Below, piece by piece: positions 14,134-59,362 of a stretch of 64,000 nucleotides of DNA (the first letter of the stretch is position 1; every line of letters starts with the position of its first letter). The notes beneath the pieces are model-generated. The model did not search any database, was not told the DNA's origin, and saw only the letters and a program-made list of their open reading frames with translations. The position numbers were made by a program, and so were the translations under genes. Origin of the DNA: Verrucomicrobiia bacterium (GTDB lineage: Bacteria; Verrucomicrobiota; Verrucomicrobiia; CAIQCK01); assembly GCA_041667205.1 (NCBI GenBank), contig JBAYFL010000008.1, forward strand, positions 1 to 64,000, written 5' to 3'.

Positions 14134-14148
14134 CGCGTCTCCGCTGGG

Positions 14149-15132: not shown

Positions 15133-15137
15133 AAATG

Positions 15138-21934: not shown

Positions 21935-21956
21935 GTTGTTGACTCCTTCCTATGTG

Positions 21957-25417: not shown

Positions 25418-25565
25418 TGGGTTCCGCAGGTTGCCATGCGCTAGCCTTAACGAAAACGAAAAAACGGCAAGCTTAATCTGCCTGTCGTTTCCGGCCGGCT
25501 TGTTTCGCGCTCCCTTGTCTTCCGTCGGATTGACTTGGCAAAGGCGGGCGGGTATTCGATGAAGC

Positions 25566-31484: not shown

Positions 31485-31875
31485 GTCGAAGCGGAGGATA
31501 GCACCAAGCGCACGTTGTGTCTCGCTTCGTCAATCTTGTGCCATCATTCTCGGCATTGACCGATTCCTCGACATGTGCCGCACGACGCTCAACGTCACCG
31601 GCGACCTAGTCTGCGCAGTCGTCGCCGCCCGCGGCGAGCAGCAGCCGACGACGTAGCGACACGGCCAGCCCGGTCTCAGAAACTCCTGCAAGAACTGCAA
31701 GAACTGGAAGTTGCATTCTGCCATCGGCGCGTTATCCTCGCGCCTGTCATCACCGCAAGCTGCAAGCAGTCAGGGCCAGTGAAGCCGCCCGCGGACGCAA
31801 AGAATCGCAAAAACCAACCGCTCCGTGGCGCGTTGTCTTCCGACATCCGGACCGTTTGCAGCGCCACGAAAAGGA

Positions 31876-33168
31876 CAAATGAAGCTTCAAATCGGCCTCA
31901 GCCGGAAAATAGCCATCGGCTTTGCGTTGGCGCTGCTGATCTTGATGGCCATCGGCGCCGTGTCTTATCGCAGCACCGTCCAGTTCGCCGAGTCGGCCAA
32001 CATCGTGACCCGTTCCCATCGGGTCATCGCGAAGCTAGAGGCCACCCTCGGCGATTTGGCGAACGCCGAAAGCGAGGCACGTGGCTACGTTATCACCGGA
32101 GATGAAAGTTATCTCGGTCTCTATCGCCGGTTTGCCGCCGACGTCGAGACCAGTGTCGAACGACTGCGCGCGCTGGCGATGGATCCCGCCATCAAAGAAG
32201 GTATTGTGAACCTGGAAAGATTGGTTGAGCAGCGTCTCGCCAAGCTCAGGAAGAGCGTCGAGACACGCAAGCTGGAAGGCCTCGAGGCGGCGGGCAAACT
32301 GGCGGGGCCGGGCAAGAAACTGATGGACGAAGTGCGCCAGGCCGTTAACGATATCGAAGATCAGGAGAGAAAGCTGCTTGATGAACGCGACCGGCTTGCA
32401 AAGTCATTGGCCAGCCGCACCATCACGGTCGTCATCCTCGGCAGCTTGCTGGCCGTTCTAGTGGCGGCCGCGAGCACGATCGTTCTGACCTCGGACATTG
32501 CGCATCGGGAGCGACTGGAGAAAGAGGTCATGGAAATCAGCGAACGCGAACAACGCCGGATCGGCCAGGACTTGCACGACGGCCTGTGCCAGCGGCTCAC
32601 GGGCACCGCGTTGCTCAACCGCAGTCTTCAGCAAAAGCTCGTGGCCAAGTCCATGGCCGAAGCGGCTGAAGCGGGGCGTGTCACGGAATTGATCAACAAC
32701 AGCATCGAGGAGGCGCGTCGTATGACACGCGGTCTGCACCCGGTGCCGGACGAGCCTACGGGTCTGATGATTGCCCTGCGGGAACTGGCGGCTGGCACGC
32801 AGAGCCTGAGCAAGCTCGCCTGCCATTTCAACTGCCCCGAAGCGGTGGCCATCCCAGATCGAACGGCGGCCACGCACCTGTTTCGCATTGCTCAGGAAGC
32901 AACACAAAATGCCATGCGCCATGCGAAAGCCTCGAACATCACAATCTCTCTTCAGGCCGATGAGAACACGATTGCGCTGACGGTAAGCGATGACGGCTGC
33001 GGTTTGCCAGAGCATCGGCAGCGCAAAGGCATGGGTTTGGAGATTATGGACTACCGCGCCCGCGCCGTCGGTGCTACACTGGCCGTGCGGCGCGGTGAAG
33101 AGCGTGGCACCGTAATGTCCTGCACGTTGCCCAGAGACGCGTTCAGTCCGCGCGAAGCGACGTCATGA
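31876..33168 (+). CDS. CHASE3-domain sensor histidine kinase (HisKA_3/NarX-type)
   Basis: Start at the internal ATG (MKLQIGLSRKIAIGFALALLILMAIG). CHASE3-like periplasmic region, TM helix, H-box EQRRIGQDLHDGLCQRL (HisKA_3), and HATPase. ATGA overlap with the next gene. Confidence 0.78.
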   Translation, partial: QMKLQIGLSRKIAIGFALALLILMAIGAVSYRSTVQFAESANIVTRSHRVIAKLEATLGDLANAESEARGYVITGDESYLGLYRRFAADVETSVERLRALAMDPAIKEGIVNLERLVEQRLAKLRKSVETRKLEGLEAAGKLAGPGKKLMDEVRQAVNDIEDQERKLLDERDRLAKSLASRTITVVILGSLLAVLVAAASTIVLTSDIAHRERLEKEVMEISEREQRRIGQDLHDGLCQRLTGTALLNRSLQQKLVAKSMAEAAEAGRVTELINNSIEEARRMTRGLHPVPDEPTGLMIALRELAAGTQSLSKLACHFNCPEAVAIPDRTAATHLFRIAQEATQNAMRHAKASNITISLQADENTIALTVSDDGCGLPEHRQRKGMGLEIMDYRARAVGATLAVRRGEERGTVMSCTLPRDAFSPREATS

Positions 33169-33842
33169 GCCACAAGAAGCAAACCAAGGCCAAGAGACGG
33201 ATCTTGGTTGTTGACGACCATCCGTTGTTGCGGGAGGGCATCGCTCGACTTATTAACGATCAGCCCGACCTCGTGGTCAGTGGCGAAGCGGAAGACCGGG
33301 CTGGCGCTTTGGCGGTCATGGATGCCGCCAAGCCCGACTTGGCGGTGGTGGACATCTCACTTAAAGACCAAAACGGGTTGGAGCTGATCAAAGACTTCAG
33401 GGTGCAGTTCCCCAGTTTGCTAATACTGGCGCTCTCCGTGCATGATGAGTCCATCTACGCCGAGCGCGCCCTGCGCGCTGGCGCGCGCGGCTACGTCATG
33501 AAGCGCGAAGCTTCAGAGAAAGTGCTGGAAGCCATCCGCAGCGTGCTGGATGGCAACGTTTATATCAGCGACCGGATTGCGGCGGGCATTCTGGACAAGG
33601 TTACCGGCTATCCCGCGGGGCCGGTGCGCTCGGCGTTGGATGTTCTGAGCGACCGTGAAATGGAAGTGCTCATGTGGATCGGCAAAGGCTACGGTTCCAG
33701 CCAAATCTCCAAACATCTTCACATCAGCGTGAAGACCGTTGAGGCGCACCGGGCCAACATCAAGCTTAAGCTCAATCTTCCCTCCAGCAGCGAATTGCTC
33801 CAATGCGCCATTGGCTGGGCCCAGCACATGGGCGAAATCTGA
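33165..33842 (+). CDS. NarL/FixJ-family response regulator (REC + LuxR-type HTH)
   Basis: ILVVDDHPLLREG...LAVVDISLKD receiver plus a C-terminal LSDREMEVLMWIGKGYGSSQISKHLHISVKTVEAHRANIKLKL. Confidence 0.88.
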   Translation: MSHKKQTKAKRRILVVDDHPLLREGIARLINDQPDLVVSGEAEDRAGALAVMDAAKPDLAVVDISLKDQNGLELIKDFRVQFPSLLILALSVHDESIYAERALRAGARGYVMKREASEKVLEAIRSVLDGNVYISDRIAAGILDKVTGYPAGPVRSALDVLSDREMEVLMWIGKGYGSSQISKHLHISVKTVEAHRANIKLKLNLPSSSELLQCAIGWAQHMGEI

Positions 33843-33978
33843 CCGCGGACGTCGCTGCCGGATTGGGGCGGTAGGGGATCCTCCCTAGGATGGGTAGTGA
33901 AAATTCCCCAATCCGAAACGGGCGCGCCCCTCATTGTGCCGGGAGCGTGTCAGCCTGTAGCGTCTGGCAGTTAGAAAG

Positions 33979-34683
33979 ATGGAAGTCATGGCTTCAAAAG
34001 AAACTGCCGGCGTAGCGTCGAAGAAACGGGTGTTGCTGGTGGATGACCACGCGGTCGTTCGCATGGGATTGACCGGTTTGATCAACGTGGAACCCGATCT
34101 TGTGGTTTGCGGCGAGGCGGAGGACGAGAGCCAGGCGATCACCGCGGCCAAGGAACTCCAGCCCGATGTTGCGGTGGTGGACTGGTCGCTGAGGAACAGG
34201 GACGCCTCGGAATTGATCACAACTCTGTGCCACCAACACCCGCAATTGCCTGTGCTGGTGCTCTCCGTCCATGAGGAACATCTTTACGGCGAACAGGCCA
34301 TTCGCGCGGGCGCGCGAGCCTACATCATGAAGCATGAGGCCACCGAAAAGCTCATCGAAACAATCCGCCGTGTGGCCGCCGGCGAAGCCCTGCCGGGCCA
34401 AAAGGCAGCCGCGAAATCTTCAACAGCCGGCTTTGGCGAATGGCCGCCCGAGAAGGTCGCCTTGCTGAAAACACTGACGGAGACTGAAACGAACGCGCTG
34501 AGGCTGATTGCCAATGGTTACTCGTCCTCTCACATCGCGGAGTTGCTTGTGCTGCGCCTCAAAAACTTCAACGCACTACAAGAGAGTTTGAAAACCAAAC
34601 TGCGATTGAGCAGCACGGCCGAACTGTTCCAAACCGCGCCTCGTTGGGTTGCTGAATCGCATCGTGCGGCGCGCATGGGTTGA
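33979..34683 (+). CDS. NarL/FixJ-family response regulator (second, orphan copy)
   Basis: VLLVDDHAVVRMG...VAVVDWSL receiver plus a LuxR-like HTH (LTETETNALRLIANGYSSSHIAELL). Confidence 0.75.
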   Translation: MEVMASKETAGVASKKRVLLVDDHAVVRMGLTGLINVEPDLVVCGEAEDESQAITAAKELQPDVAVVDWSLRNRDASELITTLCHQHPQLPVLVLSVHEEHLYGEQAIRAGARAYIMKHEATEKLIETIRRVAAGEALPGQKAAAKSSTAGFGEWPPEKVALLKTLTETETNALRLIANGYSSSHIAELLVLRLKNFNALQESLKTKLRLSSTAELFQTAPRWVAESHRAARMG

Positions 34684-34749
34684 GCAACGCGCGCGCATCC
34701 CTAGAGGCTGCTAGGAGTTTTTCCTTAGAAAGGTTTAGGGGGCCGCCTA

Positions 34750-35277
34750 ATGGCGCATGCCGGCTTGGTGGCTCAAGATTGCAGTGTCATGAAAACCAAA
34801 TCTGAAAGCACTGATTGGAAGGAGAAGGGGCAATGCCACGGCGTGATCGTTCACGAAGACCTGCCGACAGAGTTGCGCGCCAAGAGACTGTGGAGCCAAC
34901 TCGTCCACGACATGGGACAGGGCGTGCGATGCGACGCTACGTATCAGCCCGCCGAGCGGATCAAAGAGTTGTTGGACTTCAACCAAGCCGGTCTGACTGA
35001 CATCGTGATCGTTTCCGTGCATGACCTCGCCCGGTTCTTTTTTGGAGCAGCGGGATGGTTGAACGATTGGCTGAACGCCAAGTCCTGCCTGCCGCGCGCA
35101 TTGTTCGTCCTCCACGACGGGAAAGAGGACAACCAAGCGGTTGGATTCCTACGAGCGATTTCCGAATCCGCCGGCGTAACCTTGTTTAGCCGCGGCCGCG
35201 AAGTCGGCAACGACCCGCCTCTCAGCAATTCGAAACATGACCGTCGGCGGGCGGAAGATCTGGCGTTGGCGTCGTAG
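34750..35277 (+). CDS. hypothetical protein
   Basis: Open frame with no recognisable motif. The start may instead be the internal ATG at 34789. Confidence 0.3.
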   Translation: MAHAGLVAQDCSVMKTKSESTDWKEKGQCHGVIVHEDLPTELRAKRLWSQLVHDMGQGVRCDATYQPAERIKELLDFNQAGLTDIVIVSVHDLARFFFGAAGWLNDWLNAKSCLPRALFVLHDGKEDNQAVGFLRAISESAGVTLFSRGREVGNDPPLSNSKHDRRRAEDLALAS

Positions 35278-35330
35278 CAGGCGGCAGTAAGGGAAATCAA
35301 GACATGAGGCCGATCCCCTGCCACATCAAA

Positions 35331-36077
35331 ATGCCCAGGCGCGGTTTCACCCTGGTTGAGTTGATGACCGTGACTGCCATCATCGGTGTTCTGTCCGGAA
35401 TCCTGGTTGCCGGCGCTGGATATCTTCAGCAAAGGGCACTGAGATCGCGCACCTTGGCCACTCTTGCGCAGGTTTCCACGGCCATAGAGATGTTCCATGC
35501 AGACAAGGGCGGGTATCCACCGGATTTCACCTGCACAACAGATAGCAATGTGCTCATAGCCAACCAGTATGTCTGGCCTTGCGAAGCCCTGTGGTTCTGG
35601 TTGGAGTATTGGGGGCCGCATCAGCAGTATCCCAAGCAACCCTACCTTCATTTCAAGCGCGACCAAGTGATAGCGGGCGAGACCAAGATCCATGCACGGT
35701 ATGATCAGTCTGCCTGCAAGTATCACCGGATCGTTGACGCGTGGGGTAACCCGATGAACTACAAGAGTGCCAACGGAAACAGCTACAGGTTCACCGACGG
35801 CAACTACGTGCCGCGCCAGAACCGGCAGAGTTACGACTTGTGTTCCTACGGCGCGGATAACACCACCTGGAAAGATATGGAAAAGCCATTCGATCGCCAG
35901 AAAGAACTGAGGCTCGATCAGATGACAACAGTGGTCCACTACAACGGGCGGGATCATGGTCAGATACCCAACTATCTATTCAAGCCTTTCGACACCCAAG
36001 TTTCCGCCGGCGGCAAGATGAAGCTTTGTTTCGCCGGTGCAGACAACGACGACATCAACAACTGGCAACGGCGATGA
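35331..36077 (+). CDS. prepilin-type N-terminal cleavage/methylation domain protein (type II secretion / type IV pilin-like pseudopilin)
   Basis: MPRRG|FTLVELMTVTAIIGVLSGILV is a classic class III signal peptide. Start chosen at 35331 to give a short leader. Confidence 0.8.
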   Translation: MPRRGFTLVELMTVTAIIGVLSGILVAGAGYLQQRALRSRTLATLAQVSTAIEMFHADKGGYPPDFTCTTDSNVLIANQYVWPCEALWFWLEYWGPHQQYPKQPYLHFKRDQVIAGETKIHARYDQSACKYHRIVDAWGNPMNYKSANGNSYRFTDGNYVPRQNRQSYDLCSYGADNTTWKDMEKPFDRQKELRLDQMTTVVHYNGRDHGQIPNYLFKPFDTQVSAGGKMKLCFAGADNDDINNWQRR

Positions 36078-38599: not shown

Positions 38600-39481
38600 T
38601 CAGTAGGTGCGTTTCAGCAGGTAATCCGCCAGCGCACGCAATGCCTCACCGGCTTTTCCAAAACGCGCGACCGCTTTCAGCGTGGACGCCGTCCAGCGCG
38701 CGGCTTCAGCGCGCGATTTCTCCAAGCCGAGCAGCGACGGGTAGGTGGCTTTGTTCGCCTTCGCGTCCTTGCCGGCGGTCTTGCCGAGTTGCTCGGTCGT
38801 GGCGGTGCAGTCGAGGATGTCGTCAATGATCTGAAAAGCGACGCCGAGGCCGTGGCCGTAGGCGGTGACCGCCTTGAGCTGCGCGGTCGTGGCGTTGCCG
38901 GCCATCGCACCGAGCCGGACGCAGGTGCGGATCAACGCCGCCGTCTTGCGCTCGTGGATGTAGCGAAGGTCGTCGAAGCTCACCGCGCGGTTCTCGCCTT
39001 CGAGGTCTTCCACCTGTCCGGCGATCAGCTCCAGGCTGCCGCCGGCTCGCGCCAGTTCCAGCACGAACCTCACCGTTGGATGGCGCGGCTGCGGTTTGGT
39101 CTGAGCGATAATCTCGAACGCCTGCGTCAGCAAGCCGTCGCCGGCGAGGATGGCGATGCCTTCGCCAAAGACTTTGTGCGACGTCGGCTTGCCGCGGCGG
39201 AAATCGTCGTTGTCCATCGCCGGCAGGTCGTCGTGGATGAGCGAGTAGGTGTGGACCATCTCGACGGCGCAGGCCGACGGCAGCGCGTTCTTGATCTTGC
39301 CGCCGACCGCTTCGCACGCGGCGAGCACCAGGATCGGCCGCAGCCGCTTGCCGCCGGCTTGGAGGGAGTAGCGCATCGCCTTGTGGATCGTGGTGGGCCG
39401 CGTTTGTTCCGATGGCAGCGCGCGATCCAACGCGGCATCCACCAGCCGCAGGCGTTCATCTAAATAGCTTTTCAGTTCCAT
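38600..39481 (-). CDS. polyprenyl diphosphate synthase (FPP/GGPP synthase, IspA-like)
   Basis: First Asp-rich motif LIHDDLPAMDNDDFRRGKPT and second motif FQIIDDILD. Start at the internal ATG at 39481. Confidence 0.85.
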   Translation of the reverse strand: MELKSYLDERLRLVDAALDRALPSEQTRPTTIHKAMRYSLQAGGKRLRPILVLAACEAVGGKIKNALPSACAVEMVHTYSLIHDDLPAMDNDDFRRGKPTSHKVFGEGIAILAGDGLLTQAFEIIAQTKPQPRHPTVRFVLELARAGGSLELIAGQVEDLEGENRAVSFDDLRYIHERKTAALIRTCVRLGAMAGNATTAQLKAVTAYGHGLGVAFQIIDDILDCTATTEQLGKTAGKDAKANKATYPSLLGLEKSRAEAARWTASTLKAVARFGKAGEALRALADYLLKRTY

Positions 39482-39519
39482 GCTGATTCCTGAATTCGAT
39501 TTTTTCCGGGGCGCGCTGT

Positions 39520-39978
39520 GTGTATCGTAGCTCCATGCAGTGGTGCAAGCAGAAGTTTCCGGCGTTGGTGTTGTTGCTCGGCGGCGCGGCGATCCTGGCC
39601 GCAGTGCTGACCTTTTCGCCGGGCGCGGACGGTTGGGGCGACAACGGCCGCTGGCGGTTGCCACCGTGCTCGTTCAAGACGTTCACCGGCTGGATGCTCG
39701 GCCGCCCGCTGCCGTGCGCGACATGCGGTTTTACACACGCGTTCGCCTACGCCGCGCGCGGGCGGTTCGCCGAGGCGTTTCGCGAACAACCAGCCGGCGC
39801 GGTGACGTTCTTGGCCATGCTGGCGATGATGGCCGGCGCTGGCTGGACGCTGGCGACCGGCTCGCCACCGGTGCAATTGCGGCGATGGCAGTGGATCACG
39901 CTCGGCATCGCGGGCGGGGCGCTGCTGTTGGCGGCGTGGGCTTGCAAACTGTGGGAGGCGTTCTACGCCGTCCGGTAG
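39520..39978 (+). CDS. DUF2752 domain membrane protein
   Basis: PPCSFKTFTGWMLGRPLPCATCGFTHAF matches the CPxxxxTG..CPxCGxTR signature of DUF2752. Flanked by TM helices. Confidence 0.6.
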   Translation: MYRSSMQWCKQKFPALVLLLGGAAILAAVLTFSPGADGWGDNGRWRLPPCSFKTFTGWMLGRPLPCATCGFTHAFAYAARGRFAEAFREQPAGAVTFLAMLAMMAGAGWTLATGSPPVQLRRWQWITLGIAGGALLLAAWACKLWEAFYAVR

Positions 39979-40008
39979 CGAGTTTGAAGCTCGTGTGACG
40001 ACGGGCGC

Positions 40009-41250
40009 TTACGAGAGCTTGAAGAACTGCCGCAGGCTCTTCTTTCCTTGTTGTCCGATGCGGCTCGAAACTCGCTGCCAAGCCTTGGATGGTTTTTCGG
40101 GAGTCTGTTTGCGGTGTTCTTCCTTGCTGGCGTTGAAAGCAAAGTTCTCCAGTTCGATGGACGCCGGAAGTTGGGGCGCCCCGACAACCAGCGGCGCGCC
40201 CATGTTGATGGCTTCCACCGCCTCCGCAGCAAAGGGGATTTCCAGATCGAACGGTCGCGACAGCGCAGTCTCAACCTGGCTCCGCTCCAGATCGTTGCGC
40301 TTGAAAAGATGGTTCAGCACGAGGCGCACGTTGTTGCGGGGATAGTGCCGGAAATCGAAGAATTCCAGCATGGCCTTCATGGTGGCGATGGAGGCCATGT
40401 CGGGTGCCATGATGGCCATGATCTCCTGCGCGGCGTCCAACCCTGCCAAGGTGGTGTTGCGCATGTCGTCGGGCAGGTCCAGCACCACGTAATGATAGTT
40501 CTGGCTCAGCAGGGTCAACATGCGCGAAAGTTGCTCCGGCTTGAGCGCCGACATTGTCTCAGCGCGACCCGGCGCCGGCAGCACGAACGCGCCGCTGCTG
40601 TGCGGCAGCAGCAGCTTGTTCAGCATGTCAATTTCGATTTCCTCGGCCGGCACCGTAGAAATCTCGTCCCAACTGGTGCGTGCCGTCAGATTGAGCATGA
40701 GTGCGCTGTGACCAGCCACATGCGCCAAGTCCACCAGCACGGTGGGCTGGCTCCACAACTGGGCCAGGCCCGTTGCCATGTTGGCCGCCAAGGTGGACAC
40801 GCCGACGCCGCCGCGCAGCGAGTAGGCTGCAATGACCTTGCCCTCGATCCGTTGCGTCTGGCCCTCTCTCGGACGCTCGCCGGCACGGCGCAGCAAGACC
40901 TTGATCCGCGCCAGCAGTTCGGGCGCGTGGAAAGGCTTGGTCAGGTAGTCGTCGGCCCCGGCATCAAGGAAGCGAATCTTCTCTTCCTGGGAACTCTGGG
41001 CGGTCAGGATGATCACCGGCATGTGGGCGAATTCCGGTTTGCGCCTGAGACGGCGGCAGACTTCATGGCCGTCCAATTGCGGCATCACCACGTCGAGGAT
41101 AAGCAGATCCGGCTCATGTTCCTCCAATTTCTCCAGGGCTTCCGCGCCGTCTTGGGCGGTATGCACTTCATAACCTTCGCGCTCCAAGGCATGAGAGAGC
41201 GTTCGCAACGTGCTGCTATCGTCGTCTGCGATGAGAATTACGGCTGCCAT
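40009..41250 (-). CDS. response-regulator receiver fused to MinD/ParA-family ATPase (CpaE-like)
   Basis: Receiver ILIADDDSSTLR...LLILDVVMPQLDG...TKPF, then a deviant Walker A SLRGGVGVSTLAANMA and a ParA/MinD-like core. Confidence 0.8.
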   Translation of the reverse strand: MAAVILIADDDSSTLRTLSHALEREGYEVHTAQDGAEALEKLEEHEPDLLILDVVMPQLDGHEVCRRLRRKPEFAHMPVIILTAQSSQEEKIRFLDAGADDYLTKPFHAPELLARIKVLLRRAGERPREGQTQRIEGKVIAAYSLRGGVGVSTLAANMATGLAQLWSQPTVLVDLAHVAGHSALMLNLTARTSWDEISTVPAEEIEIDMLNKLLLPHSSGAFVLPAPGRAETMSALKPEQLSRMLTLLSQNYHYVVLDLPDDMRNTTLAGLDAAQEIMAIMAPDMASIATMKAMLEFFDFRHYPRNNVRLVLNHLFKRNDLERSQVETALSRPFDLEIPFAAEAVEAINMGAPLVVGAPQLPASIELENFAFNASKEEHRKQTPEKPSKAWQRVSSRIGQQGKKSLRQFFKLS

Positions 41251-41384
41251 AAATCCATTGTTGCGAGTTGAGTTTGCTCTTGCGCCGCGCAACCGGCGCA
41301 GCGCCATCGTTTGTCCGCCAGCCTGAAAAACTAAGCCATCGCCAAATCAAAGGCGAGATGAAAGCTCAGATCCTCCGCGGTTGG

Positions 41385-42569
41385 TCATTTGCCGAGGACT
41401 TGTTCCGTCGCCAGTCGTTCGGCGATCTCGATCAACGCGCCGCTGGCAGTGCCTTGCGGGTCGCTGGACACCATGGGCATACCCATCCGATTGGCCTCTG
41501 AGCAGGCGTCGGTGGCTGTTGGCACAACGCCCACCAGTTGGCAACCCATCGTGCTCAGCACCTCGGCGACGTCCACCGAAATCGGCAGCGGCTGGCGGTT
41601 GACCACCACCACGCCGATGCGGACGGGAATCACGCCCAGTTGCTGGAGCAGGTCTGTCATCACTTTACCCGCCACCACACACGTCGGAGTGCGATCAATC
41701 ACCACCACCACAAAGTCGCAGTGCTTCACCGCCGCCTGACATGCCGCGGAAGCATGGCTCTGTAGATCCAAGATCACGTATTGTCCCAAGCCGGCCAGCG
41801 CGCGCGTCAACGCGTCGACCATGTCAGAACCGAGTTCCTTGAAGTCCTCGGCGCGTTGTGGCCCCAACAGCAGGCTCAGGCCTGACGGCAGTTTCACCAA
41901 ACACCGCTCGACTTCCCGCGAGGTGATTTTATCCGGCTCCAGCTTCATCAGTGTATTGAGGCCGCTCAACGCCGCCCGGCTCTTCTTGTAGAAGAAAGGG
42001 TCGTAGAAGGCGCTGTAAGAACCCAGCAACTCCGCCGCGATGACCTCCTTGTGCTTCTTGGCGAGCGCGGCGGCAACATTGAGCGCGACGGTGGTGGTGC
42101 CGACGCCGCCGCGCGCGCCGATGACGCCGATCGTCTTCCCCGCCTTCGCCCCCTGGACCTGTTTCAACTGGGCCGCCTGCACCTTGTGCCGCTCGATGGC
42201 ATAGTGCAGGGTGCGGTGCAGCGTCTTGGGTTGCACCTGGCCTTTGACCAGAAAATCCTGCGCGCCCTGCCGCACCGCCTCGATGGCGACGGCCTCGTCG
42301 CTGACACCCGTCAACGCCACGACGGGCACGTTGGGCGCTTCTTTTCGCACCGCCGTGAACGTCGCCATGCCCTCGCTGTCGGGAAGCATGAAATCCAGCA
42401 ACACCAGGTCAATCGTCTGCGTGCGCAACTTCTCCAACCCCTCGCTGAGACGCTCGGCGCGTTGGATCACGAAAGCCCCCTCGCCGGCCTTGGTCAACGC
42501 CTCGGTGATCACGCGCGCGTCCACCGCGTTATCTTCCACTAGAAGAATGTTGTATGCCTTGGTGCTCAT
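41385..42569 (-). CDS. response-regulator receiver fused to MinD/ParA-family ATPase (CpaE-like), paralog
   Basis: Receiver ILLVEDNAVDAR...LVLLDFMLPDSEG...VKGQ, then GARGGVGTTTVALNVA and a ParA/MinD core. Confidence 0.8.
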   Translation of the reverse strand: MSTKAYNILLVEDNAVDARVITEALTKAGEGAFVIQRAERLSEGLEKLRTQTIDLVLLDFMLPDSEGMATFTAVRKEAPNVPVVALTGVSDEAVAIEAVRQGAQDFLVKGQVQPKTLHRTLHYAIERHKVQAAQLKQVQGAKAGKTIGVIGARGGVGTTTVALNVAAALAKKHKEVIAAELLGSYSAFYDPFFYKKSRAALSGLNTLMKLEPDKITSREVERCLVKLPSGLSLLLGPQRAEDFKELGSDMVDALTRALAGLGQYVILDLQSHASAACQAAVKHCDFVVVVIDRTPTCVVAGKVMTDLLQQLGVIPVRIGVVVVNRQPLPISVDVAEVLSTMGCQLVGVVPTATDACSEANRMGMPMVSSDPQGTASGALIEIAERLATEQVLGK

Positions 42570-42636
42570 GGTGTTTCTCTCCTACTGACGACCGTCGTTG
42601 CTCCTGCGCTTGCGGAAGGAAAACGTCTTCATCGGG

Positions 42637-43014
42637 TCATCCCTGCGTGATGTTGTGCAGCTCAACAGCGACCCGCTTGAATTCTTCCTCGATCCGGCAG
42701 ATCAACTCGGCGGCTCCCTCCAGTTTTCCAGAACCGGCGAGTTGTTCCAGTTGCAGAGAGACTGCCGTCAGGTTGCTGGCACCGACGTTCAGACTGCTGC
42801 CCTTGATCGTGTGCGCCGCCCGTTTTAGCCCGGTGAAGTCACCCGCCGCGAGCGTCTCGCGCATCGCCACCAGCCGCTGGGCCGTGTCGCTTTCAAATGC
42901 GGAGAACACATCCTTCAGAAACGCCACATCGCCGTCGCCGATCTCGCGCAACCGCTCAATCGCCGCGGCATCCACCGCTGGCTTCTCTTGCCCCAAGCGA
43001 TCAGGTGTTTCCAT
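42637..43014 (-). CDS. Hpt (histidine phosphotransfer) domain protein
   Basis: 125 aa carrying the HTIKGSSLNVGA motif with the phosphorylatable His. Confidence 0.75.
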   Translation of the reverse strand: METPDRLGQEKPAVDAAAIERLREIGDGDVAFLKDVFSAFESDTAQRLVAMRETLAAGDFTGLKRAAHTIKGSSLNVGASNLTAVSLQLEQLAGSGKLEGAAELICRIEEEFKRVAVELHNITQG

Positions 43015-43167
43015 ATTCGGCCTCCATTGCCGCCGTCATCCCGCAGCCGTTGCCGCACACACGGGACCGCGGCCGCCTGTCAATTTTTCTGAACCTCACT
43101 TCTCGATCCAGTCAATGCATCCAACCGCAACTGGCCGGAAGTGTAGTTTTGGCAGCCGGGTTTGTCC

Positions 43168-43349
43168 ATGCAGGAGTTTTGATTGTCGGAACTCCATGAG
43201 AATGTCCCCATCATAACTCTTTAGAAATGTCCCCTTTGGGGCGGAGTTGCGTTAGCAACTCCGGCCACAACATGGAGACATTAACGATGAGTCGGAAGGA
43301 ACGGGATCGGTTGACGGTCATGATCGGGATCATGCAGGAGTTTTGATTG
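43168..43349. repeat. two 19-bp direct repeats (CATGCAGGAGTTTTGATTG at 43168-43186 and 43331-43349) flanking a perfect 8-bp-stem hairpin (GGAGTTGCgttaGCAACTCC, 43243-43262)
   Basis: Read directly in the roughly 400-bp intergenic region upstream of the Hpt gene. Confidence 0.7.
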
Positions 43350-43410
43350 CACACGCGGAGCCTGCCGTGAACTTCCCGGCGTCCGGCCCTTCGCCTGGAT
43401 GACGGCCGTC

Positions 43411-44901
43411 TCACACCGGCCACGGACCTTTGAAACCAGTCTCGGCCAACTTCAGTTTGTGGAGATGGGCGAAGAGGCGGAACTTCCGCGCGTGGTCGCC
43501 GCTGAAGAGGAGGTTGTGGTGGCCTTTGACCATGCAGGCGTCCTCGCGATCGGTGATGGCGATCTCGACATTGGTGGTGCAACCGCCCGCCGGCGGCATT
43601 GCGTGCGATTTTACGACGCGGCCGGCATACACGTCGAGCGCCGGTTCCTTGCCGGGATAGTAATGGATCATCGTCACCGGCTCGTCGGGCTTCCAGAAAA
43701 CTTGGATGGCGCAACTTCCCTCGTTCGTGTGCGCGAACCGCCGCAGCAGATACGGCAACTCCGGCCCGGCCGGCCCGCGCATCCGCGTCGCGCAAGTGCA
43801 ATGCGATGCGTAGTAGTGGTTGCGCTCGGTGTCATAGCAGGGGTTGTGCTGGAAGCCCGGCTGGCCGAGCAGCAACTGGCCGAGCAGTTGGCCGTAGGCG
43901 GCGGGCATGTCGTTCTCGCAGATCGCCGGCACCAACGCGCTGTTGAGCGCGGAGAAACTCATGCACGGCTTGAGCATCCCGCGCCGCAAGCAGGTCATCG
44001 CCACGCCGTCGGCTCGCTCCTCGGCCAGCAGCTTCTTCAACGTCAAGTGCGCCCGCGCGGCGTTCTCCAGCGCCTCGCGCATGATGCCGCGTTTCTCCTT
44101 CGCTCTGCCGCTGAACCGCGCGATGAAGCGCCGCGCCTCCGCGCCGAGCGCGACCTTGCCGAACTCATCGGCGTAGCGATCGAACGGGATGACGCTGATC
44201 TTCGTGCCAAAGAACGTCTCGACGATCTCACCCGGCTTCTTCACGTCGGTGACGCTGAGCAGCTTGCTCTGCGCCATGAGCTTCTTTGTGTTGATCATCC
44301 GCAAGCTGCTCTCGATGGCGTCCATGTTCTCCAGCGACTGGATGAAATAAACGCCCGGCCGCCGATACGCCGTCACCGACCCGTGTTTCACGCCGAGGCC
44401 GATGTAGAAGATCGCGGGAATGCCGAGCTTGTCGGCGGCCTTCAGCAACAACTCGGCGTGCGCGAGGCTGCGGTTGTAGAACATCACCAGCAGCAACCCG
44501 TCCGGCTTCTGAGTTTCCAGTTCCTGTGCCAGCCGCTGCGCGCCGGCATCGTCAGCGATGGACGAGTCATCCATCACGAGCTTCAGGCCGAGCTTCTGTT
44601 CCATCTTCCGCAGCGCGGCTGCGTATTGCCGCTGCCGGCCCTCGGCGTCGTAGTCGTTGCCCGGCCAGCTCCACCAGTCGTCCGTCTTTGTCTTGAATGT
44701 CTTCGATGGCGGATAGAGAAACGCCACGCGCACCGTCGCGCCCTGCTTCGCCGCCCGCGACGCTGCCGCGTTCTCCGCCGCGTCGGCGATCATCGGAGCG
44801 AGCGCCATTCCGCCTAACGCCGCGCTGGCGATGGCGAGAAACTCCCGCCGGTCCAGTTGGCAGCCACACGCGCAGCTTGAATCATGACCATGCTTGTTCA
44901 T
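43411..44901 (-). CDS. TAT-signal exported protein of unknown function (paralog of 52498..54015)
   Basis: N-terminus MNKHGHDSSCACGCQLDRREFLAIASAALGGMALA: a twin-arginine motif preceded by a CxCxC cluster. A C-terminal region is conserved with its paralog (E-D ... PGF..P..DT ... HC..TRM ... GDH). Confidence 0.65.
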   Translation of the reverse strand: MNKHGHDSSCACGCQLDRREFLAIASAALGGMALAPMIADAAENAAASRAAKQGATVRVAFLYPPSKTFKTKTDDWWSWPGNDYDAEGRQRQYAAALRKMEQKLGLKLVMDDSSIADDAGAQRLAQELETQKPDGLLLVMFYNRSLAHAELLLKAADKLGIPAIFYIGLGVKHGSVTAYRRPGVYFIQSLENMDAIESSLRMINTKKLMAQSKLLSVTDVKKPGEIVETFFGTKISVIPFDRYADEFGKVALGAEARRFIARFSGRAKEKRGIMREALENAARAHLTLKKLLAEERADGVAMTCLRRGMLKPCMSFSALNSALVPAICENDMPAAYGQLLGQLLLGQPGFQHNPCYDTERNHYYASHCTCATRMRGPAGPELPYLLRRFAHTNEGSCAIQVFWKPDEPVTMIHYYPGKEPALDVYAGRVVKSHAMPPAGGCTTNVEIAITDREDACMVKGHHNLLFSGDHARKFRLFAHLHKLKLAETGFKGPWPV

Positions 44902-44914: not shown

Positions 44915-46540
44915 TCAGCGTTTGGATTTCGCTTTGCCAGCCTTGCTAGATTCCGCCGGCCCGGCCTGTCTTCGAAACTCCGTCTCCAGCGCCTGCCACT
45001 TCGCTTCCATCGCCTGCGCCCGCTCCGGCTGTTCCTTCACGAGGTTCTTTCTCTCGCAGCGGTCGGTGCTCAGGTCGAACAACTCCCACGTGTCCTCATC
45101 CTCGCGCGCCGAGACCAGCTTCCAGTCACCCATTCGCAGCGCGCGGTTGCCCTCGTGGTTGAAGAAAAGGAACTCGCGCGTCACCGCGCCGTCGCGCGCG
45201 AATGCCGGCGCGAGGCTCTTTCCAGGCAACGGCGGCGCGCCGGCAGGCAGCGCGGCTTTTCCTCCGGCCAGATCGAGCAGCGTGGGCGCGAAGTCAATCA
45301 CGTGGCCAACATCGCGCCGCAGTTCGTCGCGCGCGCTGATGCCCTTCGGCCAGTGGACGATCAGCGGCGTCGAGACGCCGCCCTCGTTCACCCAGACCTT
45401 TTGGCGTCGGAACGGCGAGTTGCTGGCGCTCGCCCAGCCGGGGCCGACGCAGAGGAACGTCTGCCACGATCCCGGCGCCGCCGCGCGGTCGTGGCCGTCG
45501 CCGCGCACCATCAACGTCGCGTCCGCGCCGTTATCGGAGAGGAAGAAGATGACCGTGTTTTCCAGCGCGCCCATCGTTCGGAGCTGTTCCACCACGCGGC
45601 CGATCTCGCGATCCATCCGGTCCACCATCGCTGCATGGATGGCCATCTTCGTCGCCTGAAACCGCCGCTGCTCGTCCGTCAGGCTTTGCCACGCGACGGC
45701 GTAACGGCTTTCGCCCGGCCCGACCTTTTCGAGCAGGTCCGGCTTGAAATAGCGCGGCGAGAGTTTCTCGTCTCGCAGCGCCAGGTCGCAGTTGACGATG
45801 CCCATCTCGCGCAACCGGCGCCACCGCCGTTCGCGCACCACGTCCCAGCCTTCGAGGTAGCGGTCGCGATACTTCGCGATGTCCTCCTGCGGCGCGTGCA
45901 GCGGGAAGTGAGGCGAGATGAATGCGAGGTAGAGGAAAAACGGCTGCGCGGCGTGGTTGGCCGCGTGGTCCTTCATAAAACCGATGGAGCGGTTGGCGAA
46001 CTCCGTCGTCGCGTAGTAGCCGCTGTCCGGCTTCACCGGCGGTGCTTGCACGTCGTCCACCCAGTGTTGCACCGGCGAGAAATAGCGATCCCAATCCTGG
46101 AACCAGTAGGAGTGGTCGAAGCCGCCATCCGCCACCGGCTTCGGCGCGCCGAGCACATGCCACTTGCCGGCGTGATAGCTGCGATAGCCGAGCGGCTTGA
46201 GGCAATGCGGCAGCAACCGCGCCCACGCCGGCAGCCGGCCGCGCGGCGGGTCCATGCGGATTTGTTGCGCGTAGTAACCGCTCATGATGCACGAGCGCGT
46301 CGGCCAGCAACGCGCCGTGTTGTAGAACTGCGTGAACCGCAGGCCGTTCGCGGCGAGGCGGTCGAGGTTCGGCGTGGCAATCTCGCCACCGTAGCAGCCC
46401 GGGTCGGAGAACCCCATGTCGTCGGCGAGGATGATGACGAAGTTCGGCTTCGCGTCGGCGGCGGAGGCAAACCACAGAAGACACGGAAGAAGGAGAAGAA
46501 GAAGCGAGCGAGAACGCCGAGTAGATTGTCTTGAGCGCAT
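44915..46540 (-). CDS. sulfatase (Cys-type, formylglycine-dependent)
   Basis: Signal peptide, PNFVIILADDMG, and active site CWPTR. The Lys-rich tail ends ...SKAGKAKSKR. Start at the internal ATG at 46540. Confidence 0.88.
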   Translation of the reverse strand: MRSRQSTRRSRSLLLLLLPCLLWFASAADAKPNFVIILADDMGFSDPGCYGGEIATPNLDRLAANGLRFTQFYNTARCWPTRSCIMSGYYAQQIRMDPPRGRLPAWARLLPHCLKPLGYRSYHAGKWHVLGAPKPVADGGFDHSYWFQDWDRYFSPVQHWVDDVQAPPVKPDSGYYATTEFANRSIGFMKDHAANHAAQPFFLYLAFISPHFPLHAPQEDIAKYRDRYLEGWDVVRERRWRRLREMGIVNCDLALRDEKLSPRYFKPDLLEKVGPGESRYAVAWQSLTDEQRRFQATKMAIHAAMVDRMDREIGRVVEQLRTMGALENTVIFFLSDNGADATLMVRGDGHDRAAAPGSWQTFLCVGPGWASASNSPFRRQKVWVNEGGVSTPLIVHWPKGISARDELRRDVGHVIDFAPTLLDLAGGKAALPAGAPPLPGKSLAPAFARDGAVTREFLFFNHEGNRALRMGDWKLVSAREDEDTWELFDLSTDRCERKNLVKEQPERAQAMEAKWQALETEFRRQAGPAESSKAGKAKSKR

Positions 46541-46578
46541 GTTTCCTTCCGTGTGTTCCGTGTCTTCCGTGGTTCTCT

Positions 46579-48081
46579 TCAATTGTTGGCGGCCAACCCC
46601 CGCGCGGTGCTTCCCTTCTTTCTCAACTTCGCCAGCAGTTCGTCGAGATGCTTCACTATGTCCGGATGTTCGTTGTAGAGGTTCGTCGTCTCGTTCGGGT
46701 CTTTCTCCAAGTCGTAGAGTTGGCCCGCTGGCGCGTCGGACTTGAGTTGGCCGGCGGCGGTGTAGTCGCTGTTCTTGCGGCCAATCTTCCACGGCTGCAT
46801 CCATGGTCCTTTCTCATCAGTCGAAAAACCGCCGGAGCCACGCTTTGGGAAGAGCAACCACTTGCCCTCACGAATAGCGAGGCCACCCGTGCCGATGAAT
46901 GTTGCGAACGTCCGCACCGGCTTGCGGCCCGGTGTGTCGAGCAGCGCCGGCAACGCGTTGAAACTGTCCGGCCCCTCGTCCGAGCCGAGGTTGCGTCCCA
47001 GCACGGCGGCGAACGTCGCCAGCATGTCGGTCAGCGCGATGAAATCGCCCGTGCGCGTGCCCGCCGGGATGCAGCCGGGCCAGCGTGCGATGAACGGCAC
47101 GCGATGGCCTCCTTCCCACACATCGGTCTTCTGGCCGAGCAGGTCGCCGTTCGCGAGATGGCCGGCTTTCACGGCGTCTCGATGCAACACGCCGCCGTTG
47201 TCGCTCGTGAAGAAAACGAGCGTCTTCTCCGCGAGGCCGAGACGGTCGAGCGCGCCGAGCACTTCGCCGACGGCCCAGTCGAGTTCCTGGATGTAGTCGC
47301 CATACGCGCCGATGCCGCTGCTGCCTTGGAAGCGTTTGCCGGGCGTGACCGGCACATGGACGTTCATCGTGCCGTAGTAGAGGAAGAATGGCCGCTCCTT
47401 GTTCCGCTCGATGAACTTCACCGCCTTCTCCGTGTGCAACGCGCAAAGCTCGTCGTGCTTCACCAGCGCGGACTTGCCGCCTTGCAGGACGCCGTGCGGA
47501 AACTTCGGCGGCTGCGCGGGCAGAATCTTGATCGGGTCGTTCGGGTCGAGGTCGACGACACGATGGTTGTCCACGACCACCTGCGGCGGCTCGTTGTGCG
47601 TCATCGCGGTGCCGAAGAACGAATCGAAACCGCACTCCAGCGGCCCCGGCTTGAGGTCGCCGTTCCAATCCGGTTGCTTTACGCCGTAGCCAAGGTGCCA
47701 CTTGCCGACAAGCGCCGTGGCGTAGCCCGCCGATTTGCAGAGCGAGGCGATGGTCGTTCGCTCCGGCTCGACGAGGCAGTCGCGGTTCCACCTGCGCCCG
47801 ATGCGGTAATACTCGCGGCCCGTGATGATCGCATAGCGCGTCGGCGTGCAAACGGCGCAAGGCGAGTGTGCGTCAGTGAAGAGCCGTCCTTGTTGCGCGA
47901 GCCGATCAATGGCCGGCGTCTTGACCTTCGTCGCGCCGTAGCAGCCGAGGTCGCCGTAGCCAAGATCGTCGGCGAGGATAAAGACGATGTTGGGCTTCTG
48001 GATTGGCTCTGCGGAGTGGAGCGACACTGACGAAGCTAGGAACAGGGCGGCGAGGAAGATGCGGAGTGGTTTCATGGTCAT
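46579..48081 (-). CDS. sulfatase (Cys-type)
   Basis: Signal peptide, PNIVFILADDLGYGDLGCYG, and active site CTPTR. Confidence 0.9.
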   Translation of the reverse strand: MTMKPLRIFLAALFLASSVSLHSAEPIQKPNIVFILADDLGYGDLGCYGATKVKTPAIDRLAQQGRLFTDAHSPCAVCTPTRYAIITGREYYRIGRRWNRDCLVEPERTTIASLCKSAGYATALVGKWHLGYGVKQPDWNGDLKPGPLECGFDSFFGTAMTHNEPPQVVVDNHRVVDLDPNDPIKILPAQPPKFPHGVLQGGKSALVKHDELCALHTEKAVKFIERNKERPFFLYYGTMNVHVPVTPGKRFQGSSGIGAYGDYIQELDWAVGEVLGALDRLGLAEKTLVFFTSDNGGVLHRDAVKAGHLANGDLLGQKTDVWEGGHRVPFIARWPGCIPAGTRTGDFIALTDMLATFAAVLGRNLGSDEGPDSFNALPALLDTPGRKPVRTFATFIGTGGLAIREGKWLLFPKRGSGGFSTDEKGPWMQPWKIGRKNSDYTAAGQLKSDAPAGQLYDLEKDPNETTNLYNEHPDIVKHLDELLAKLRKKGSTARGLAANN

Positions 48082-49550
48082 TTCTTCTGCACGGCGGGAT
48101 ATGGGCGTTCAGGAACGAGACGTTGCCCATCGGAAAAACCTTCCGGCCTTCCGGCCAGCCGCTGGATGAGACGCTGACGCCATTGTTTCACCGCGGGGAG
48201 CTTTGAGAGGTCGCGTTCCTCGCGTGGATCGCGGTCGAGGTCGAACAACTGCTCCGTGCAGTCCGTGGGACGCCAGATGTATTTGAAGTGGCCGTCGGTA
48301 AGCGCGTGAAACGCCTGAGCTTTGCTGTAGCAGGGCGCGTGTTCGAAATGCAGCCAGTCGCGCGTCACGCGTCCCGTGCCGCGCAATACCGACACGAGGC
48401 TGACACCGTCGGCGGATTTCGGACGGTTGATGTGCGCCAGTTCCGCCAGAGTCGGCAGAATGTCTTCGAGACAGACCGGCTGGTCGCAACGTCCGCCTGC
48501 CTTGAAGCCGAGCGACGGCGAGCCGCAGATGACGAACGGGATGTTGGCGGCGCCTTCATACGGCTCGCACTTGCGGAAATAACCGTGGTCGCCGAGCAGT
48601 TCGCCGTGGTCGGAGGAGACCACGATGACCCACGCGCGCCCGGCCTTCTCGCTGCGGGCCTTGAAATCGGCGATCAGCGGGCCGAACTGTTCGTCGAGAT
48701 GCTCGATCAACCCGAAGTAGCCGGCCTGCGCGCGCCGCAGCGGCTCGCCTTCCAAGCGCACGCGATGTCCGCCTTTGTCGCCTGTCGGCGAGAGCGCCGC
48801 CCAATCCACCCAGTCGCCGTGCGCCGGGCGCGGCAGCTCCTTTTTCAGAAGCGCGTCGAAAAACTTCTTCGGCGGGAACAACGGCGGATGCGGCGCGTAG
48901 AACGACGCGGTCAGGAATAATGGCTTCGCGGCGGGCGTGGCATTCACGACCTGTCGGGATTGCCGGACGATCCACGCAGTCGGGTGCAGATCGTCGGGGA
49001 GAGGCCACGGCGCGGCGGGCCAGAGGTTGCAGTTCAGCCCCAGTTTCGCGATCACGTTGCGAATGCCGCCGCATTCCTGCGCGGCTTTCTTCAAGTCGGT
49101 GTCGTAATCGTCGTCCGACACATAGGTCGAACCGAGGACTTGTTTCTGGTAGCCGCAGGTGCCGCTCGCAGACTGCTGGTGCATGTTGCGGCCGACCAGC
49201 ACGGTGGCATAACCGGCGTCCGCCAGCAGGCCCGGCAGGGTGGGCGTCGTAATCGGCCGGGCGCCGTAGCCCACGATTCCACTGGCCTGCGGCGAAGTGC
49301 CGGTCAGCAACGCGTAGCGCGCGGGAATGCACGACGGCACGGTAGAATACGCCCGCCGGAAGAGTATTCCCTGCCGAGCAAGCTCGTCCAACTGCGGCGT
49401 GCGCACGACCGGATGGCCGAGCGCCGACAGGCAGTCGCCGCGCATCTGGTCGGGCATCAAGAACAAGATGTCCGGCTTCTCCGCGGCCCGCGCGTAGAGC
49501 GATGGCGCGAGCAGCACGGCAGAGAGTGTAAGTAATTGGAAAGCCTTCAT
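48078..49550 (-). CDS. sulfatase (Cys-type, choline-sulfatase-like subgroup)
   Basis: MKAFQLLTLSAVLLAPSLYA signal peptide, PDILFLMPDQMRGD, and active site CIPAR. ATGA overlap with the previous gene. Confidence 0.85.
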   Translation of the reverse strand: MKAFQLLTLSAVLLAPSLYARAAEKPDILFLMPDQMRGDCLSALGHPVVRTPQLDELARQGILFRRAYSTVPSCIPARYALLTGTSPQASGIVGYGARPITTPTLPGLLADAGYATVLVGRNMHQQSASGTCGYQKQVLGSTYVSDDDYDTDLKKAAQECGGIRNVIAKLGLNCNLWPAAPWPLPDDLHPTAWIVRQSRQVVNATPAAKPLFLTASFYAPHPPLFPPKKFFDALLKKELPRPAHGDWVDWAALSPTGDKGGHRVRLEGEPLRRAQAGYFGLIEHLDEQFGPLIADFKARSEKAGRAWVIVVSSDHGELLGDHGYFRKCEPYEGAANIPFVICGSPSLGFKAGGRCDQPVCLEDILPTLAELAHINRPKSADGVSLVSVLRGTGRVTRDWLHFEHAPCYSKAQAFHALTDGHFKYIWRPTDCTEQLFDLDRDPREERDLSKLPAVKQWRQRLIQRLAGRPEGFSDGQRLVPERPYPAVQKK

Positions 49551-51019: not shown

Positions 51020-51027
51020 GGCGGTTC

Positions 51028-52488: not shown

Positions 52489-52497
52489 GATCGTATC

Positions 52498-54015: not shown

Positions 54016-54100
54016 CTCGTCACCTCTGGAGTTGTGGCAGCGCTGAACGGCTTCCGTCGCGGCGGCAGATTATGCCTGCTGCACGGCACTTTGAAAACCT

Positions 54101-55842: not shown

Positions 55843-55921
55843 AGAGTTTTCGCAAAAGCTCCCGCCGCCGCTTGGGCGGCCGAGAAACAAACAACCACAA
55901 TGAGCGATGGCGACCGGTGGC

Positions 55922-56614: not shown

Positions 56615-56644
56615 CTCTCACGCCCGGCTGAGGTGGAGTTTGCT

Positions 56645-57952: not shown

Positions 57953-57964
57953 GGTGGGTGTTCC

Positions 57965-59341: not shown

Positions 59342-59362
59342 GTTGTTCCCGATGTTGAGTTG

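Follow-up and report, generated by a model that had tools for sequence, protein, structure and literature searches.

The subject of this analysis is a signaling operon in a stretch of 64,000 nucleotides from a Verrucomicrobiia bacterium (GenBank assembly GCA_041667205.1, contig JBAYFL010000008.1, positions 1 to 64,000; hereafter, the window). The GC content of the window is approximately 62%, and its closest protein matches are in metagenome-assembled genomes (MAGs) of Verrucomicrobiia and Verrucomicrobiota. The operon consists of three open reading frames (ORFs) arranged in tandem on the minus strand with short gaps, in the order Hpt, RP2, RP1 (40009-43014). Hpt (42637-43014) is a stand-alone phosphotransfer protein of 125 residues that matched Pfam family PF01627 with an E value of 1.6e-14. 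RP2 (41385-42569; 394 residues) contains a receiver (Response_reg, 3.2e-21) and a MinD-fold ATPase-like domain of the TadZ/BcsQ type, with Pfam matches to AAA_31, ParA, CBP_BcsQ, and CbiA. RP1 (40009-41250; 413 residues) similarly contains a receiver (Response_reg, 4.6e-35) and a MinD-fold, TadZ-type domain matching CBP_BcsQ, AAA_31, and ParA. The RP1 reading frame is open to 41307, and Met20 (41250) is most likely the start because RP1 orthologs begin at the equivalent position. The two proteins align collinearly as distant paralogs, with 26% identity (E = 2e-16). An original prediction, made from the sequence of the window, had described a minus-strand run of an Hpt and two paralogous receiver-ParA proteins with a convergent DUF2752 gene beside it. 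Indeed, Pfam recovered every named domain. In the Joint Genome Institute (JGI) annotation, both RP1 and RP2 are called CpaE, and current database labels for similar proteins are limited to "response regulator" or "CpaE".

The DUF2752 gene (39520-39978, plus strand; Pfam, 1.4e-9) encodes a membrane protein and is convergent with the RP1 gene, from which it is separated by 30 bp. The original prediction had treated it as part of the unit. It was retained only in a relative whose proteins are 86% identical (L001) and was missing from the orthologous loci at 71-73% identity (L091 type). DUF2752 was therefore rejected as a member of the module and is probably a bystander.

The phosphotransfer residues of both receivers correspond to the canonical response-regulator set. 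In an alignment to Escherichia coli CheY, positions 12, 13, 57, 87, 106, and 109 are occupied by D-D-D-T-Y-K in RP1 (D28, D29, D72, T102, Y121, and K124 in ORF numbering) and by E-D-D-T-F-K in RP2 (E12, D13, D59, T87, F106, and K109). The acidic pocket and phospho-acceptor Asp that had been noted earlier are thus present in both proteins. Among 35 RP1 homologs with identities as low as 47%, the RP1 residues showed little or no variation, and the phospho-acceptor Asp was present in 103 of 110 RP2 homologs. The Hpt domain scored 54.3 bits against a cut-off of 24.6 and was the sole Hpt match among all window ORFs. Its phospho-accepting His is H68, within the sequence HTIKGSS (HxxKG motif), which reads HTIQGSS in L091; the Hpt orthologs are 87% (L001) and 62-64% (L091) identical. 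With a genuine Hpt and two canonical receivers, phosphotransfer between them, as originally proposed, is chemically plausible. That the module relays phosphoryl groups to its two canonical receivers is well supported.

The ATPase-like domains were compared with MinD using HMMER and the MinD structures. The MinD motif KGGTGKTT aligned to RGGVGVST in RP1, starting at R165, and to RGGVGTTT in RP2, starting at R153. In both proteins, the signature Lys is replaced by Arg, and the P-loop Lys is replaced by Val (RP1) or Thr (RP2). This state extends to the families: [KR]GGxG[VT][ST][ST] was found in 111 of 120 RP1 homologs, mostly as RGGxGVS[ST], and the motif of the RP2 family is [KR]GGVGTTT. The deviant Walker A motif of MinD/ParA ATPases, xKGGxxGK[ST], which the original prediction had described as intact, is therefore absent from RP1, RP2, and both families. 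The motifs match the Walker-A-like consensus of TadZ, K/RGGXGXS/T, as quoted in a 2026 preprint, and RP1 and RP2 share with TadZ a MinD/ParA fold that lacks the P-loop Lys. According to secondary sources, TadZ binds ATP with low hydrolysis and serves as a polar recruitment hub. Since the P-loop Lys is absent, RP1 and RP2 are expected to bind ATP and dimerize but to hydrolyze ATP poorly. The view that these domains are scaffolds, not motors, is reasonably supported.

In an AlphaFold2 model of RP1 (pLDDT 83.4), the receiver is connected by a disordered linker to a MinD fold. Using Foldseek, the best match of the model in the PDB was a Chlorobium ParA-family ATPase that also lacks the Lys (3EA0; TM-score 0.87), followed by MinD, FleN, and Soj. 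TadZ from Eubacterium rectale (3FKQ) was the sole ATPase-containing two-domain match. The best PDB matches by sequence were MinD-1 from A. fulgidus (2.4e-13) and MinD from Aquifex (7e-9); the sequence similarity of RP2 to 3FKQ was weak (E = 0.005). Across 35 RP1 sequences, down to 47% identity, 60 positions were invariant, including G166, G167, G169, D193, and D277. RP1 also has a conserved C-terminal tail, SKEEHRKQxPxxPSxAWQRV (window 40012-40140), of which S, P, W, R, and R are invariant across phyla. The predicted C-terminal helix (residues 408-430) is amphipathic and ends in KKSLRQFFKLS; presumably, it resembles the membrane-targeting sequence of MinD. Members of the RP1 family end in KKSLRQFFKLS or KGLRRLFG in Verrucomicrobiota and in a basic sequence of the QQRRQKR type in Chloroflexota. 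RP2 has no amphipathic C-terminal tail.

The operon is preceded by an intergenic region of 396 bp. The only promoter-like site found in 39300-43500 is a sigma-70-like promoter on the minus strand at 43140-43168, upstream of Hpt, with the -35 element TGGACA (43168-43163) separated by a 17-nt spacer from the -10 element TACACT (43145-43140). This site is contained in a non-coding block, AAACTCCTGCATGGACAAACC.G....CCAAAACTACACT, that was invariant in the window, L001, L100, and L091 despite different upstream genes, which indicates that the Hpt-RP2-RP1 module carries its own promoter. A 19-nt direct repeat, CAATCAAAACTCCTGCATG, occurs on the minus strand at 43167-43185, where it overlaps and abuts the -35 element within the conserved block, and again 164 nt upstream at 43331-43349. 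The exact repeat occurs twice in the window against an expectation of 0 in shuffled sequences, and the proximal copy is a candidate regulator site. The region upstream of Hpt also contains an imperfect tandem repeat of 20 nt (43190-43234) and an inverted repeat of 12 nt (43239-43266); the repeats in this region are possible regulator sites. No intrinsic terminator was found beyond chance inside or after the operon.

CpaE-like proteins are typically associated with Tad/Flp pilus loci, and the original prediction had remarked that no pilus genes were nearby. This held for the whole window. Specifically, Pfam analysis of approximately 48 window ORFs revealed no T2SSE/CpaF, T2SSF/TadBC, secretin, RcpC, Flp, TadE/G, or prepilin peptidase, and Tad proteins from related loci, used as phmmer queries against all window ORFs, had no match in the 64 kb. 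The RP1 and RP2 genes are thus not located within a tad locus between the secretin and tadA/cpaF genes, the position in which TadZ/CpaE is typically encoded.

The context of the triad was nevertheless informative in related genomes. The exact RP1 and RP2 proteins of the window were found on contigs of 217 kb and 360 kb. In a relative with 86-88% identity (GCA_016222825.1), the order Hpt-RP2-RP1-DUF2752-polyprenyl synthase is kept while the outer flanks differ. In two lineages with orthologs at 71-73% identity, one side of the triad is occupied by a complete Tad operon, in the order CpaF, a 427-residue TadZ, secretin, RcpC, DUF362, two Flp genes, and a LuxR-type regulator. The divergent genes Hpt, RP2, and RP1 then follow, and after them a fusion of an NCS1-type transporter and a receiver. 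Beyond this lies a cluster of six genes transcribed toward the triad, encoding a receiver-kinase, a hybrid kinase, a receiver-PAS protein, a receiver-PAS-kinase, a stand-alone receiver, and a Tll0287-PAS-kinase. Based on this layout, the triad physically links the Tad operon and the kinase cluster. In tblastn searches, the six kinase-cluster genes were orthologous (74-87%) to window 11413-21390, and no counterpart of any Tad gene of these lineages was found in the window. The claim that the cargo of RP1 and RP2 is unknown therefore needs revision, in that the orthologous triads at 71-73% identity abut a Flp/Tad operon.

The 427-residue protein of this operon is a classical TadZ with a degenerate receiver (D57 to H, T87 to A, and K109 to A) and the Walker-A-like motif RGGCGRT, and its gene occupies the canonical slot; the triad adjoins the operon but is divergent from it and outside it. 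RP1 and RP2 are therefore phosphorylatable paralogs additional to the TadZ that this operon already encodes. Two further features of these loci were observed. The transporter-receiver fusion directly after RP1 (L091 11295-13217, and in L085-L098) comprises 625-640 residues, with an NCS1-type transporter-like domain (Transp_cyt_pur) and a canonical C-terminal receiver that is 46% identical to that of RP1; it has no counterpart in the window. In addition, a DUF362 gene is kept between flp and rcpC in Verrucomicrobiota Tad operons (L091 4787-5821, L182 8016-9071, and L186 298-1335). DUF362 is not a standard Tad component.

The relatives' secretin was used as a query to search for a Tad locus of the window organism. 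In GCA_016222825.1, a complete Tad locus is on another contig than the triad and encodes two Flp proteins, DUF362, RcpC, secretin, a degenerate-receiver TadZ, CpaF, TadB, TadC, TadG, and TadE. For the window organism, the search yielded a secretin (P0246) that is present in the same European Nucleotide Archive (ENA) assembly as the window contig (ERZ27249449). Its contig, k141_143715, starts inside a flp gene and encodes DUF362, RcpC, secretin, a degenerate-receiver TadZ (VILVHNG, RGGCGRT), CpaF, and TadB/C. In two MAG submissions, the accessions of this secretin are MFA6564868 and MFA7005403, and those of the window RP2 (P0121) are MFA6562012 and MFA7002988. The offsets are 2,856 and 2,415, as compared to 2,747 for the pair known to be in the same genome in GCA_016222825.1. 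Based on the accession proximity and the shared assembly, the Tad pilus machine is very probably encoded in the genome of the window organism, unlinked from the triad.

Separation from the Tad locus has not been accompanied by loss of constraint. Relative to L001, the ratios of nonsynonymous to synonymous substitution rates (dN/dS) were 0.16 for Hpt, 0.125 for RP2, and 0.146 for RP1. These values indicate that all three genes are under purifying selection after separation, and decay of the detached triad was rejected accordingly.

The kinase cluster that adjoins the triad in relatives is also present in the window. Nine two-component genes occur on the minus strand at 11410-25783 and encode, according to Pfam, five histidine kinases and six receivers, including stand-alone receiver and receiver-PAS proteins; none has an Hpt or a recognizable output domain. 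The part at 11410-21390 has the same internal order as in the relatives but is inverted relative to the triad. The part at 21485-25783 looks like a partial internal duplication of the cluster, with paralog matches of 57-74%. The gene at 12553-14133 (minus strand) encodes a hybrid histidine kinase with the Pfam architecture HisKA-HATPase-receiver and no Hpt. Its ortholog, 77% identical, is three genes from RP1 in L091-type loci, and it is the best candidate for the upstream phosphodonor of Hpt. The description of the Hpt as an orphan was thus correct for the operon itself but not for the window, which also contains the kinase cluster found beside the triad in relatives.

The wider family was surveyed using an ATPase-only alignment as a query, which yielded 28 metagenomic RP-like loci for which ORFs were called crudely. 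With the RP1 ATPase domain, 57 clusters at 50% identity were found at E ≤ 1e-30 and 3,746 at E ≤ 1e-10, mostly two-domain proteins of approximately 400 residues. On genome contigs, a full-length RP1 alignment keyed on the generic motif ADDY.KPF of receivers and mainly recovered response regulators of the ordinary kind; the only full-length relatives it yielded were L005 and L006. Among 99 immediate neighbors at the 28 loci, Pfam matches were to HATPase_c (24), Response_reg (22), HisKA (21), Hpt (5), further MinD-type proteins forming tandem pairs (5), Flp (2), and TadE (2). Homologs of the RP1 family in Chloroflexota are encoded downstream of giant PAS hybrid kinases carrying Hpt domains. In L101, a CheA-like kinase (4856-7171; H-kinase_dim, HATPase_c, CheW, and receiver) is encoded two genes upstream of an RP2-like gene, suggesting that some family members may be wired to chemosensory-type pathways.

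Several distant relatives are adjacent to Tad genes. The gene order in L106 is kinase, receiver, RP2-like, Flp, Flp. L125 contains a complete Tad operon, beside which the only MinD-like gene is a divergent one that encodes an RP2-like protein with a canonical receiver; next to this gene come two dCache hybrid kinases that carry Hpt domains. In L139, TadG-TadE-TadE adjoins an RP2-like gene, and in L157, Flp-TadE-TadE-TadG-RcpC is located 3.7 kb downstream of an RP-like gene. A comparison of receiver sites separated two classes: kinase-linked RP-like proteins have canonical receivers, whereas the CpaE encoded between secretin and CpaF has a degenerate one (the TadZ/CpaE of L091, L182, L186, and L159-L177), and the P-loop variant is common to both. 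The partial exceptions are L139, in which the second acidic residue and the Thr/Ser are missing, and a tandem pair in L129, of which the second member is degenerate. Tandem receiver-TadZ-like pairs were found in unrelated lineages (L102, L115, L121, and L129), those of L102 and L115 being an RP1-type and an RP2-type protein. Their recurrence suggests that the two proteins work together, perhaps as a heterodimer.

Comparison with characterized systems placed RP1 and RP2 closest to TadZ/CpaE, for which the examples considered were Aggregatibacter TadZ, Caulobacter CpaE, and E. rectale TadZ (3FKQ). All are proteins of approximately 400 residues with a receiver-fold N-terminal domain and a MinD-fold domain, all have the Walker-A-like motif K/RGGxGx[S/T] without the P-loop Lys, and RP orthologs and several distant relatives adjoin Flp/Tad genes. 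However, TadZ/CpaE has a degenerate "atypical receiver domain", whereas the receivers of RP1 and RP2 have the canonical D/E-D-D-T-Y/F-K set, and RP1 and RP2 are two paralogs whose genes share an operon with an Hpt instead of belonging to the secretin-TadZ-CpaF block. BcsQ (YhjQ), a MinD-like organizer of enterobacterial cellulose secretion, was the other close family by Pfam and NCBIfam. The P-loop of E. coli BcsQ, which we take to be RGGVGTTT, would also lack the Lys and be identical to that of RP2. CBP_BcsQ was the best match of the RP1 ATPase domain (32.7 bits; cut-off, 21.3) and was also above the cut-off for RP2 (23.9 bits). TIGR03371 matched RP2 at 2.5e-13, but its score of 50.1 bits is far below the equivalog cut-off of 157.85. 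BcsQ, described in a review as closely related to TadZ, has no receiver domain, unlike RP1 and RP2. Pfam revealed no cellulose synthase genes in the window, and bcs genes were missing both there and from the related loci that were inspected.

RP1 and RP2 share their fold, and their best PDB sequence matches, with MinD, FlhG (FleN), and Soj/ParA. They differ from these in the alteration of the deviant Walker A motif KGGxxGK[ST] (K to R, and K to V or T), in the presence of an N-terminal receiver, and in an operon that has no MinC/MinE or ParB-type partner. In its signaling components, the module resembles multistep phosphorelays such as LuxU-LuxO and Ypd1-Ssk1/Skn7, in the latter of which one Hpt feeds two receivers: a stand-alone HxxKG Hpt occurs with receivers, and hybrid kinases that lack an Hpt are encoded elsewhere in the window and, in relatives, beside the triad. 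The module differs in its outputs, which are ATPase-like domains of the scaffold type instead of transcription factors, and its upstream kinase is a candidate.

Based on the abovementioned results, we interpret Hpt-RP2-RP1 as a phosphorelay-controlled variant of a TadZ/CpaE-like pair, encoded as a self-contained operon with its own promoter. We infer the route of phosphotransfer and the effect of phosphorylation as follows. One or more hybrid histidine kinases, the best candidate being that at 12553-14133, would phosphorylate Hpt at H68, and the phosphoryl group would then pass to D59 of RP2 and D72 of RP1. The MinD-fold outputs would act as nucleotide-dependent scaffolds rather than as oscillating ParA/MinD motors. 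Phosphorylation of the receivers may switch dimerization, possibly of an RP1-RP2 heterodimer, or membrane association or partner binding. Through this switch, RP1 and RP2 would control where or whether the Flp/Tad machine assembles, a machine encoded on another contig with its own constitutive, degenerate-receiver TadZ. We give about an even chance to the full model, in which the triad is a phosphorelay whose TadZ-type, nucleotide-dependent scaffold outputs modulate the assembly or placement of the Tad pilus machine.

It is synteny alone that points to Tad as the client of RP1 and RP2, and a number of observations weigh against this assignment. Tad genes were found at 4 of the 28 metagenomic RP-like loci (5 if a weak TadE match in L121 is included), most of the others being beside kinases, and at none of four RP1-family loci (L002, L004, L088, and L090). 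The triad is not linked to Tad genes in the genome of the window or in its closest relative. The placement of the Tad locus in the same genome derives from MAG binning and accession proximity, not from a closed genome. Moreover, the TadZ of the Tad operon makes RP1 and RP2 dispensable as a structural hub. Finally, searches of the literature retrieved neither a description nor an experimental study of a TadZ/CpaE-like protein with a canonical receiver, and nothing specific on receiver-MinD response regulators.

Several of these observations would also be expected if the same relay served another or broader cargo, with RP1 and RP2 acting as general kinase-controlled scaffolds for a different envelope or cytoplasmic assembly, such as polysaccharide secretion in the manner of BcsQ. 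Tad adjacency in relatives would then reflect shared regulation or chance. The predominance of kinases and Hpt as neighbors, the TadZ of the Tad operon itself, and the purifying selection on a triad unlinked from Tad all fit this explanation, as do the rank of BcsQ among the top Pfam/NCBIfam matches of the ATPase domains and the glycosyltransferase or polysaccharide genes that adjoin homologs in L088, L090, and L157. However, Tad/Flp adjacency occurs in at least five independent contexts (L091 type, L106, L125, L139, and L157), far above expectation for a locus of approximately 10-15 kb in a multi-megabase genome; the complete Tad operon of L125 has no TadZ candidate other than the RP2-like protein; and no alternative machine recurs near family members. 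Another cargo is the main rival to the Tad model and is less likely than it. An ordinary cpaE/tadZ locus, in which RP1 and RP2 are simply the TadZ of a Tad system, would agree with the JGI labels and had been named in the original prediction as the outcome if pilus genes lay just outside the window. This explanation is contradicted by the gene content and was rejected as barely tenable: the 64 kb contain no Tad genes, RP1 and RP2 are encoded outside a Tad operon that has a separate degenerate-receiver TadZ between secretin and CpaF, both in relatives and in the same assembly, and their receivers are canonical, unlike those of operon-embedded CpaE.

The original prediction favored a phosphorelay-controlled pair of positioning ATPases. 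In a model of this kind, of the ParA/MinD type, a hydrolysis cycle on the membrane or nucleoid would place an unknown cargo and phosphorylation would gate the cycle. The MinD fold of both proteins, their best sequence matches in the PDB, and the amphipathic C-terminal helix of RP1, whose likeness to MinD we presume, are compatible with such a role. Nevertheless, the missing P-loop Lys weakens this model, as this catalytic residue is absent, and the signature Lys is Arg, across both families. Furthermore, no MinE-, ParB-, or McdB-type partner is encoded in the operon. The ParB gene at 62987-64000 was rejected as a partner, as it is located 20 kb from the operon and encodes an ordinary chromosomal ParB. 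We consider positioning by hydrolysis improbable. Alternatively, RP1 and RP2 might be mainly phosphate sinks or connectors that shape the flux from multiple kinases, their ATPase-like domains having no spatial role. The linked cluster, with its five kinases, six receivers, and no output domain, invites this idea, as does the occurrence in relatives of one Hpt preceding three receivers. Strong conservation of the ATPase-like domains and of the RP1 tail, including the 60 invariant positions in 35 sequences, and dN/dS values of 0.12-0.15 over the full length argue against it and make it quite unlikely.

The prevailing view of TadZ/CpaE is that of a polar hub that acts constitutively and in which the receiver-like domain is no longer capable of phosphorylation chemistry, and the known signal control of Tad pili operates via transcription or polarity factors. 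A widespread sister group with canonical receivers, wired to kinases and Hpt and adjacent to Flp/Tad genes, points to direct phosphorylation control of the assembly or placement of the pilus machine. This group also suggests a plausible ancestral or descendant state for the degenerate receiver of TadZ. If correct, the relay model would provide the nine-gene kinase cluster, which lacks an output, with one. More broadly, and only tentatively, canonical-receiver TadZ-like proteins may constitute a large, uncharacterized class of two-component outputs: phospho-switchable, ATP-binding, hydrolysis-poor scaffolds, often RP1/RP2-type heterodimers, through which histidine kinases would control the placement or assembly of envelope machines post-translationally, with Tad as one client and the client of the detached triad as another.

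The remainder of the window contains several other regions. The triad is flanked on one side by genes for a polyprenyl synthase and a trehalose-phosphate synthase/phosphatase. On the other side, a protein of approximately 500 residues without a Pfam match (43411-44901), which has a twin-arginine-like signal, precedes an array of nine sulfatase genes on the minus strand (44915-60751); a second protein of similar size without a Pfam match is encoded at 52498-54015. The array is followed by genes for an NHL-repeat protein (60830-61870) and an alpha-L-fucosidase-like protein (61875-62921), and the region looks like a sulfated-glycan degradation island. The ParB gene (ParB_N, HTH_ParB) is cut by the end of the window, and its partner parA would lie just outside; it has no relationship to RP1 and RP2. 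At 28111-30361, a gene for an extracytoplasmic function (ECF) sigma factor overlaps the following gene for a Ser/Thr protein kinase of 547 residues; the two may form a signaling unit. The region at 31825-36077 encodes a CHASE3-HisKA_3 kinase, two LuxR-type response regulators, a 175-residue protein without a Pfam match, and a prepilin-type N-methylation protein. The LuxR-type regulators (33165-34683) were rejected as orthologs of the flp-adjacent regulator, as they are 36-39% identical to it versus 64-87% for true orthologs. The prepilin-type protein (35304-36077) was likewise rejected as a Tad component since its signature is that of an N_methyl/T2SSG pseudopilin, not Flp.

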